Positions 15,610 to 16,401 of a stretch of 32,000 nucleotides of DNA are shown here, in pieces. Below the pieces are notes generated by a model. That model had not been told where the DNA came from. It made no database searches and saw only the letters and a program-made list of their open reading frames with translations. Location of the stretch: assembly GCA_016933055.1 (NCBI GenBank), contig JAFGBS010000033.1, forward strand, positions 60,001-92,000. The letters run 5' to 3'. Position 1 is the first letter of the stretch. Each line of letters starts with the position of its first letter. The position numbers and the translations under genes are program-made. This stretch comes from Promethearchaeota archaeon. Lineage in GTDB: Archaea > Asgardarchaeota > Lokiarchaeia > Sigyniarchaeales > Promethearchaeaceae.

Positions 15610-16401
15610 TTATAATACAAATGGAATGAGTGCTTTTCTCTCTTTAGGATAATCTGTAAATGTTTCTTGATACCATTTGTGATTCTTTATAGCTCGTGGG
15701 GCTAAATTCGCAAATGTCCATATAGGAAATACTAAACCCGCTAGAGACCATGTCATAATCGCCCACCCCGTCCACTCCAAAACTTCTCCGAAATAGCTGG
15801 GACAAGATACATACTTGAACATCCCACCCTGGGGAATTTTGAATTGGAATGATTCTGTAGACTCTTTGGGACGTAAGTTTCGAATAATATGATCAGATTG
15901 TAAATTGATGAAAAATCCGAAGAAAAATATCAGAATACCTATAACGAATCGGACGCTTAATATCCAAGAGAGACTGTAGATGCTTGGAGACAAAATATAG
16001 ATCCAATAAGATTGCAGATATGCATTTATTCCGTTGAAAATAACCCCCATGAGGATGATCATGATGGGCATGGGATCTCTTCCACGAATTAGGATCGGGA
16101 ATATGAAAGTGCGTTGTATATAATGTAAATTCCATAACAAGAAGAAAAGAATTGGAACAAGGGGGATAGTTCCATATTTTAGATATCCCAAGTATGTGAA
16201 AAATCCATATATAATCACAGTAGGTATTTCCATAAGTATCCATCCCAGTTTGTTATTGATGGAAAATCCCCATTTTTTGGTATAATGCTGACCATATCCT
16301 GCTGTTTTTCGAAAAAGGGTTATAAAAACAATAATTGCGAGTACAAACATCACATAAATAGTTATATAGAAAATATTTGTAAGAGTGAGAGTAAGTGCCA
16401 T
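15610..16401 (-). CDS. 3-oxo-5-alpha-steroid 4-dehydrogenase (steroid 5-alpha-reductase, SRD5A1/2/DET2 family)
   Basis: AGYGQH, GWILMEIP, HYIQRTF, SDHIIRNLR, IPQGGMFKYVSCPSYFGEVLEWTGWA, ANLAPRA..NHKWY...F..YPKERKALIPF; about seven TM helices. Confidence 0.92.
   Translation of the reverse strand: MALTLTLTNIFYITIYVMFVLAIIVFITLFRKTAGYGQHYTKKWGFSINNKLGWILMEIPTVIIYGFFTYLGYLKYGTIPLVPILFFLLWNLHYIQRTFIFPILIRGRDPMPIMIILMGVIFNGINAYLQSYWIYILSPSIYSLSWILSVRFVIGILIFFFGFFINLQSDHIIRNLRPKESTESFQFKIPQGGMFKYVSCPSYFGEVLEWTGWAIMTWSLAGLVFPIWTFANLAPRAIKNHKWYQETFTDYPKERKALIPFVL

Follow-up and report, generated by a model that had tools for sequence, protein, structure and literature searches.

An SRD5A1/2-type membrane reductase gene in a Promethearchaeota archaeon and its short-chain dehydrogenase neighbours

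Introduction

Steroid hormones, dolichol and very-long-chain fatty acids are served in the eukaryotic endoplasmic reticulum (ER) by three descendants of one reductase family: SRD5A1/2, SRD5A3 and TECR, respectively. The study of the bacterial progesterone 5α-reductase PbSRD5A defined a Q-E-Y catalytic signature, found the human Q56A/L variants to be inactive and described eight NADPH-contact residues (N160, D164, R171, N193, E197, R227, H231 and Y235); the signature and all eight contacts of PbSRD5A are identical to those of human SRD5A2 (PMC7815742). Here we describe an SRD5A1/2-type membrane reductase gene, hereafter SRD5A, at 15610..16401 on the minus strand of a 32,000-nucleotide stretch of DNA from a Promethearchaeota archaeon, the whole of which we call the window, together with the neighbouring genes for extended short-chain dehydrogenases/reductases (SDRs).

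Reductases of this family have been described together with SDRs. Eukaryotic dolichol synthesis runs from an SDR to SRD5A3 and back to an SDR (PMC11250103). In gut Bacteroidales, an operon of a 5α-reductase (5AR), an old yellow enzyme (OYE)-type 5β-reductase (5BR) and an SDR has been published, in which the 5AR converts 3-oxo-Δ4-lithocholic acid (LCA) to 3-oxoallo-LCA, according to a study cited in a preprint (bioRxiv 10.1101/2024.03.08.584156); the preprint reports that the Bacteroidales 5AR contributes to iso-allo-lithocholate formation in the human gut. As for archaea, polyprenol-reductase homologues were absent from those then available, and the archaeal α-saturation step was left unassigned (Lombard 2016, PMC5088576).

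Kay et al. (2025, Nature, PMC12872463) count SRD5A1 with the first ER families to have come from archaea. The supplement of that study gives the family P18405 (SRD5A1, with TECRL and SRD5A3 as later duplicates) the lineage of descent 'Asgard.', and dates its duplications to 2.61 Ga for SRD5A1 versus the rest and 2.18 Ga for TECRL versus SRD5A3. We found no publication on the function of an Asgard member of the family. The substrate of an archaeal SRD5A would reveal whether one of the three eukaryotic functions is the original one, and which.

Results

The window gene encodes a new member of the SRD5A1/2 family

SRD5A is an uninterrupted open reading frame (ORF) of 263 codons, which runs on the minus strand from an ATG at 16399-16401 to a TAA at 15610-15612. 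The encoded protein of 263 amino acids (aa) matches Pfam PF02544 (Steroid_dh) with an E-value of 4.5e-50 and 170 bits, over profile positions 2-150 of 150. Given that the curated cut-off of this profile is 22.6 bits, the match lies far beyond chance. In a sequence search against solved structures, the protein aligned with PbSRD5A (7c83) at 220 bits, collinear over residues 22-262, and with human SRD5A2 (7bw1) at 156 bits, collinear over the full length. The structure of art-1 (22of), the Caenorhabditis elegans TECR homologue, scored 74 bits and aligned with residues 79-263 only. The weak side matches to the Pfam families PEMT (27 bits) and DUF1295 (24 bits) reflect the cofactor-binding C-terminal half that is common to the superfamily.

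The AlphaFold2 model, computed from a 51-row alignment, has seven long helices, a mean predicted local distance difference test (pLDDT) score of 95.4 and a predicted template modelling (pTM) score of 0.92. When the model was compared with solved structures by Foldseek, 7c83 gave template modelling (TM) scores of 0.88/0.92 with a root-mean-square deviation of 1.9 Å and 40% identity, and 7bw1 gave 0.81/0.87, while the next structure match fell below 0.55. The window gene thus encodes a seven-helix membrane reductase of the SRD5A1/2 type and adds a member to a known family. The profile match, the two structural alignments and the predicted fold bear out the family assignment made in an earlier note on this DNA.

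A shorter gene call of 246 aa exists for the same gene (database protein P0001). Since the predicted first transmembrane helix spans residues 7-31, the 263-aa start is preferable to that call. The host genome (3.76 Mb, 91% complete), on contig 10 of which the window lies, carries this one SRD5A gene together with three DUF1295 (PF06966) paralogues.

Catalytic and cofactor residues

In the HMMER alignment to chain 7bw1_A, E58, Y94 and R97 of the window protein pair with chain residues 61, 95 and 98. These correspond to native E57, Y91 and R94 if the 258-residue construct has four extra N-terminal residues, an offset based on a native human SRD5A2 length that we take to be 254 residues. The earlier note had matched its E, Y and R to the same three human residues, and the alignment agrees. 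It had also named a set of family motifs, all of which were found: GYGQH at residues 35-39, SDHIIRNLR at 169-177, NLAPRAIKNHKWY at 232-244 and RKALIPF at 255-261. The roles assigned to residues of the window protein are transferred from the PbSRD5A study (PMC7815742). By this transfer, E58 (codons of M57-E58 at 16228..16233, minus strand) is the catalytic glutamate and Y94 (H93-Y94-I-Q-R97 at 16111..16125, minus strand) the catalytic tyrosine.

Across the Asgard, bacterial and eukaryotic homologues, E58, H93, Y94, R97, D170, E206, R236, Y244 and R255 vary little or not at all, and the catalytic pair E58 and Y94, along with H93 and R97, is invariant in every homologue group compared. The glutamine of the Q-E-Y signature, on the other hand, is replaced by M57, giving M-E-Y. 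Methionine stands at the Q56 position in all 152 of 152 Asgard homologues, in the Bacteroidales 5AR clade and in 70 of the 85 other prokaryote-like representatives; glutamine stands there in 22 of the 33 sequences of the eukaryote clade. Because active Bacteroidales 5AR enzymes carry methionine, M57 is compatible with activity and the glutamine is not needed family-wide.

Six of the eight NADPH contacts are identical in the window protein (N166, D170, R177, E206, R236 and Y244). The other two positions are occupied by S202 (codon at 15796..15798, minus strand), for N193, and by N240, for H231. Serine is found at the former in 92 of the 112 Asgard core sequences, and asparagine in 110 of 118 family representatives; the latter varies in other homologues too. 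Judged from the sequences, S202 and N240 would be conserved clade signatures and not signs of decay.

The earlier note had called the enzyme strikingly eukaryote-like. With the Parabacteroides 5AR the window protein shares 47% identity (43-47% with Bacteroidales 5AR proteins in general), with the copies in other Asgard families 44-54%, and with eukaryotic SRD5A1-type proteins between 35% (primate SRD5A1) and 44% (a mollusc SRD5A1-like protein). It is a good SRD5A1/2-type enzyme, but the description is overstated: PbSRD5A outscores human SRD5A2, the Bacteroidales identity exceeds the primate one, the M-E-Y motif is typical of prokaryotes, and two of the eight NADPH contacts are changed.

Distribution in Asgard and other archaea

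All of the 120 database proteins closest to SRD5A belong to Asgard archaea, under the names Promethearchaeota/Lokiarchaeota, Thor-, Hod-, Heimdall- and Odinarchaeota; their identity to it is 56-79%, and most have 252 aa. When 301 species genomes of the phylum were scored for presence at E <= 1e-10, the gene was found in 74 of them, and in 25 of the 90 high-quality ones. Its occurrence is patchy by family (numbered here f1 to f29). It is present in 5/6 genomes of f1, 32/69 of f2, 21/28 of f7, 9/11 of f29 and 2/21 of f24, and in none of the 76 genomes of f9, the 19 of f14 or the 11 of f16. Two closed f7 genomes (G026 and G074) each have two SRD5A copies about 20 kb apart (L119 and L120 on G026:C1), and the paired copies fall in different FastTree subclades. 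Weaker PF02544 matches in the Asgard genomes were considered as TECR- or SRD5A3-like paralogues, and all proved to be DUF1295 proteins.

Among 14 control genomes, PF02544 had matches in four bacteria; the four archaea of the set (Haloferax volcanii, Sulfolobus acidocaldarius, Methanocaldococcus jannaschii and Methanosarcina acetivorans) gave none.

A search of 1.84 billion representatives returned 4319 relatives of SRD5A, of which 493 had E <= 1e-30. About one third of the representatives could be named from exact cluster matches, and many tree tips are therefore without a label. The labelled members of the main eukaryote clade are primate, ostracod, mollusc, urchin, Balamuthia and brown-alga sequences; other labelled relatives come from Chloroflexota, Spirochaetes, Marinimicrobia and Actinomycetota, and from the eukaryotes Gefionella, Amoeboaphelidium and Galdieria. 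In a scan with a bacterial profile, whose matches were ranked by their identity to its first row, the 80 labelled loci (L035-L114) were all from Bacteroidales, and a wider set of bacterial labels did not come from it. Two metagenomic representatives (P0125 and P0242) are natural fusions, one with PCMD (573 aa) and one with a Polyketide_cyc2/SRPBCC lipid-binding domain (415 aa); these fused forms proved uninformative.

Phylogeny

A tree of 83 rows and 258 columns was computed with IQ-TREE under LG+C20+F+G4 with posterior mean site frequencies (PMSF), leaving out SRD5A3 and TECR sequences. The main eukaryote clade was supported at 98/99 and was not sister to the Asgard copies. The Asgard core clade, which includes the window protein, was supported at 95/86, and the Thor-named copy of f24 joined Bacteroidales sequences at 100/99. 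A split supported at 98/82 set the f1, f2, f3 and f24 copies together with Bacteroidales against all other bacteria, the eukaryotes and the Asgard copies of f7 and f29. The remaining backbone was a polytomy. In approximately unbiased (AU) tests, holding Asgard archaea, the Bacteroidales clade and eukaryotes together cost 13.6 log-likelihood units and was not rejected (p 0.272), and holding the 16 Asgard rows alone together cost 47.8 units, with a borderline p of 0.041. A rooting on DUF1295 paralogues placed the root among the Asgard copies; we do not rely on it, because the outgroup was drawn from Asgard genomes and sits on a long branch (1.37), and because the backbone is unresolved into anything but a polytomy.

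The tree is compatible with the published Asgard ancestry of the family and adds no support to it. The idea, raised in the earlier note, that the gene bears on an archaeal origin of eukaryotic SRD5A is already in print as Asgard descent (PMC12872463) and is not new; given the polytomy and the AU result, our own tree neither confirms nor rejects it. The window protein does not nest inside a bacterial clade, and it is the Bacteroidales clade that stands beside Asgard copies.

The nearest relatives of the f24 copy (L134:7754-8524, genome G102) are Thor, Odin (70%) and Hel (69%) sequences, followed by Binatia (62%), Deltaproteobacteria and Muribaculaceae (57%). The closeness of the Thor/Odin-type copies to the gut Bacteroidales 5AR hints at cross-domain transfer, and the tree suggests that SRD5A genes were exchanged between Asgard archaea and bacteria, in one direction or the other. 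In one or both trees, the eukaryotic SRD5A-type proteins of Galdieria (P0176), Amoeboaphelidium (P0172) and Gefionella (P0162) lie beyond the main eukaryote clade or at its margin. Their placement implies that the history of the eukaryotic family is not purely vertical.

Gene neighbourhood

Two genes for extended SDRs lie near SRD5A, both on the minus strand. SDR 'A' (13421..14404), a Rossmann protein of the Epimerase/3β-hydroxysteroid dehydrogenase (3β-HSD) type and a candidate partner dehydrogenase, matches the Pfam families Epimerase (4.3e-21) and 3Beta_HSD (1.2e-18). SDR 'B' (12408..13370), the second candidate partner, matches Epimerase (2.6e-27), and its domain pattern resembles that of the SDR divergently adjoining SRD5A in locus L118 (also f1). 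Neither falls in a curated family, and no NCBIfam model passes its cut-off; the best matches are an unnamed SDR (8rdg), NSDHL (6jkg, E 4.5e-13) and the HpnA, OleD and thioester-reductase models, far below cut-off. A closer paralogue of SDR 'A' (63% identity) lies on another contig of the host (G000:C9:41711-42667), and in most f2 genomes the best match to SDR 'A' (50-59% identity) also lies away from SRD5A.

Between the SDRs and SRD5A, a gene for an HTH_10 (Bat-type) transcription regulator (14849..15595, plus strand; PF04967, E 2.5e-14) runs convergently with SRD5A. A homologue of this regulator (ORF family F44) also flanks SRD5A in L122, a locus of another Asgard family. Upstream of SRD5A is an AT-rich intergenic region of 827 bp (16402..17228), common to SRD5A and a divergent PAS histidine kinase gene; a scan of 14300-17300, including this spacer, gave no Rfam match. 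The kinase gene belongs to a two-component block at 17229-22375, divergent from SRD5A, which encodes the PAS histidine kinase, two single-domain response regulators and a hybrid PAS kinase-receiver protein.

We compared the window with 20 Asgard loci of about 16 kb each. In 8 of these 21 loci, an extended SDR of one BLAST family adjoins SRD5A or lies one gene off. The arrangements number at least four: that of the window, a divergent pair in L118 (f1), a divergent pair with HTH_10 in L122 (f3) and a convergent block in g8 genomes. Coordinates place the two genes next to each other in about a dozen further g8/g9 genomes, the SDRs being paralogues of the SDR 'A' family. A closed genome of 4.36 Mb from the window host's own family (G210) likewise has SRD5A with an SDR beside it. 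In two g8 genomes (L123:7090-7989 and L129; ORF family F45), a DUF1295 paralogue stands between SRD5A and the extended SDR, forming a three-gene reductase/dehydrogenase cluster.

In f7, f29 and most g5 loci, the neighbours of SRD5A are Ras-like GTPases, an M20 peptidase or DNA methylases. A Ras/Arf-family small GTPase lies directly beside SRD5A in four loci of two Asgard families (L116:6982-7593, L125:7190-7957, L119 and L128) and a few kb away in L118, which may be incidental given the many GTPases of Asgard archaea.

The Bacteroidales relatives at L067 and L075 have the operon 5AR / Oxidored_FMN / adh_short. No Oxidored_FMN match was found among the window ORFs scanned, and the sole classical SDR among them, at 3997-4791, is 11 kb from SRD5A. 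The Bacteroidales operon and the Asgard SRD5A-SDR arrangement are analogous, not homologous.

Discussion

Proposed function

From the solved relatives, Y94 and E58 would hydrogen-bond and polarise the carbonyl group of the substrate. NADPH, held by the six conserved contacts N166, D170, R177, E206, R236 and Y244, would deliver a hydride to the conjugated β-carbon, and E58 would then protonate the α-carbon, so that the net reaction would saturate a C=C bond adjoining a C=O group. On this analogy, NADPH-dependent saturation of a double bond conjugated to a carbonyl, by way of E58 and Y94, can be proposed with fair confidence.

The sequence family and fold of SRD5A, its catalytic residues, and its distribution and neighbourhood are shown above, whereas its activity, its kind of substrate and any joint action with the SDRs are inferred. 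The most likely wider role, to which we give a probability of roughly 0.6, is this: SRD5A would be an accessory, regulated reductase of lipid enones or enals that works with the adjacent SDRs. The accessory role is suggested by the patchy distribution (74/301) and by the flanking regulator and sensor kinase. A neighbouring extended SDR would oxidise an allylic or 3β-type alcohol to an enone or enal, SRD5A would saturate the double bond so activated, and an SDR may afterwards reduce the carbonyl back to the alcohol.

Several observations weigh against this proposal. It is adjacency only that ties the SDRs to SRD5A, and that adjacency is confined to one order (f1, f2 and f3) and absent in f7, f29 and most f2/g5 loci. 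In the window itself, the SDRs and SRD5A do not form one operon, because an oppositely oriented gene stands between them. The SDR 'A' family occurs in 178 of the 301 genomes, including those of lineages without SRD5A (47/76 in f9), and as it is so widespread there is no signal of co-occurrence between SDR and SRD5A at the level of genomes. The two changed NADPH contacts, S202 and N240, differ from all assayed enzymes. Finally, we know of no candidate endogenous enone lipid in Asgard archaea.

Steroid-like and polyprenal substrates

The alternatives that fare best are more specific versions of the enone/enal reductase proposal. In the first, SRD5A would be a genuine 5α-reductase of 3-oxo-Δ4 steroids or bile acids, acting on exogenous polycyclic substrates from the sediment or from partner organisms. 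Its nearest characterised relatives (Bacteroidales 5AR, PbSRD5A and the Treponema denticola enzyme) are without exception reductases of such steroids or bile acids, and the Thor/Odin-type Asgard copy groups with the Bacteroidales clade. The neighbouring SDRs do match 3Beta_HSD and, weakly, NSDHL, but their matches to steroid enzymes lie far below the family cut-offs and are no better than those to sugar epimerases. Moreover, the window has neither an OYE-type 5BR nor a classical 3β-HSD like that of the Bacteroidales operon. No squalene-hopene or oxidosqualene cyclase was found in the host genome, where the sole match scored 19 bits inside a 2060-aa protein; since a triterpenoid cyclase is thus lacking, no endogenous steroid is expected and an endogenous steroid substrate is unlikely. 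Taken together, we regard the exogenous version as possible but rather unlikely.

Somewhat less probable again is that SRD5A is an Asgard polyprenal (polyprenol) α-reductase for dolichol, paired with an SDR as SRD5A3 is with DHRSX. In its favour, the α-saturation step is unassigned in archaea (PMC5088576), eukaryotic synthesis follows the SDR-SRD5A3-SDR order (PMC11250103), SDR genes recur beside Asgard SRD5A, and in the published tree SRD5A3 goes back to the same ancestor of Asgard descent (PMC12872463). A cis-prenyltransferase is present in the host genome. The distribution argues the other way, the gene being found in about a quarter of the genomes overall, in 25 of the 90 high-quality ones and in none of f9. 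Archaeal dolichols carry a saturated α unit; if so in the four control archaea, where PF02544 is absent, α-reduction there would be carried out by another enzyme. In addition, SRD5A is collinear with the SRD5A1/2 type of about 255 aa and has no counterpart of the longer N-terminal part of SRD5A3, and the neighbouring SDRs are extended, not of the classical DHRSX type.

Across the loci compared, SRD5A is not consistently linked to genes for glycosylation, nor to that for the giant surface protein encoded near SRD5A in the window. The earlier note had connected the enzyme with a dolichol carrier for N-glycosylation of this giant neighbour; as no homologue of the giant protein lies near SRD5A in the 20 other Asgard loci, synteny gives that connection no support. 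A general role in dolichol α-saturation is unlikely, because of the patchy distribution and the absence of the family from the four archaeal controls, and the collinearity with SRD5A1/2 weakens it further; a lineage-restricted role in dolichol synthesis is conceivable.

SRD5A and the extended SDRs that recur beside it might form an archaeal 'oxidise, saturate, re-reduce' route acting on an allylic isoprenoid alcohol (for example, from polyprenol to a dolichol-like lipid). Such a route could have preceded, in prokaryotes, the eukaryotic DHRSX/SRD5A3 dolichol pathway; through later duplication, the reductases for steroids and very-long-chain fatty acids would also go back to it. This is speculative, and we hold it to be slightly less probable than the dolichol reading itself.

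It is highly improbable that SRD5A is a trans-2-enoyl-CoA reductase like TECR, or a membrane methyltransferase of the ICMT/PEMT kind. These identities are suggested by the NCBI and JGI names of homologues ('methyltransferase', 'Ste14', 'DUF1295') and by the weak PEMT, DUF1295 and 22of matches. Against them, Steroid_dh scores 170 bits where PEMT and DUF1295 score 27 and 24, and the SRD5A structures reach 156-220 bits where TECR reaches 74; 22of aligns only from residue 79, the 263-aa protein has no N-terminal ubiquitin-like extension, and true DUF1295 paralogues lie elsewhere in the host genome.

Comparison with known systems

The Bacteroidales 5AR resembles the window protein in family, length and M-E-Y motif, has an SDR alongside, and groups with the Thor/Odin-type Asgard copies (100/99). 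It differs in setting: its operon, with all genes in one direction, also encodes an OYE-type 5β-reductase and a classical SDR, neither of which adjoins SRD5A in the window, whereas the candidate partners of SRD5A are extended SDRs, split off by the opposite-strand regulator. The window host, moreover, is a sediment archaeon without known bile-acid exposure.

PbSRD5A, the bacterial progesterone 5α-reductase, is the best solved match and shares the E/Y pair and six of the eight NADPH contacts; it differs in having Q-E-Y and eight human-identical NADPH residues where the Asgard protein has M57, S202 and N240. Human SRD5A1 and SRD5A2 and plant DET2 are of the same subfamily and fold, with equivalents of E57, Y91 and R94, but are 33-35% identical to the window protein, and their sterol-derived 3-oxo-Δ4 steroid substrates are not expected in the window host. 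The DUF1295 paralogues have the C-terminal cofactor-binding half in common with SRD5A and another N-terminal substrate half; they score 146-207 bits against DUF1295 and <=31 bits against Steroid_dh, compared with 24 and 170 bits for the window protein.

Compared by length and architecture, SRD5A3/Dfg10 would be of another subfamily. Its partner SDR is of another class, and the patchy Asgard distribution of SRD5A would not suit an essential carrier-lipid step. What SRD5A3/Dfg10 with DHRSX shares with the window genes is the superfamily and the logic of pairing an SDR with an SRD5A-type reductase (PMC11250103), and the SDR that recurs beside Asgard SRD5A offers a concrete two- or three-enzyme system for reconstitution.

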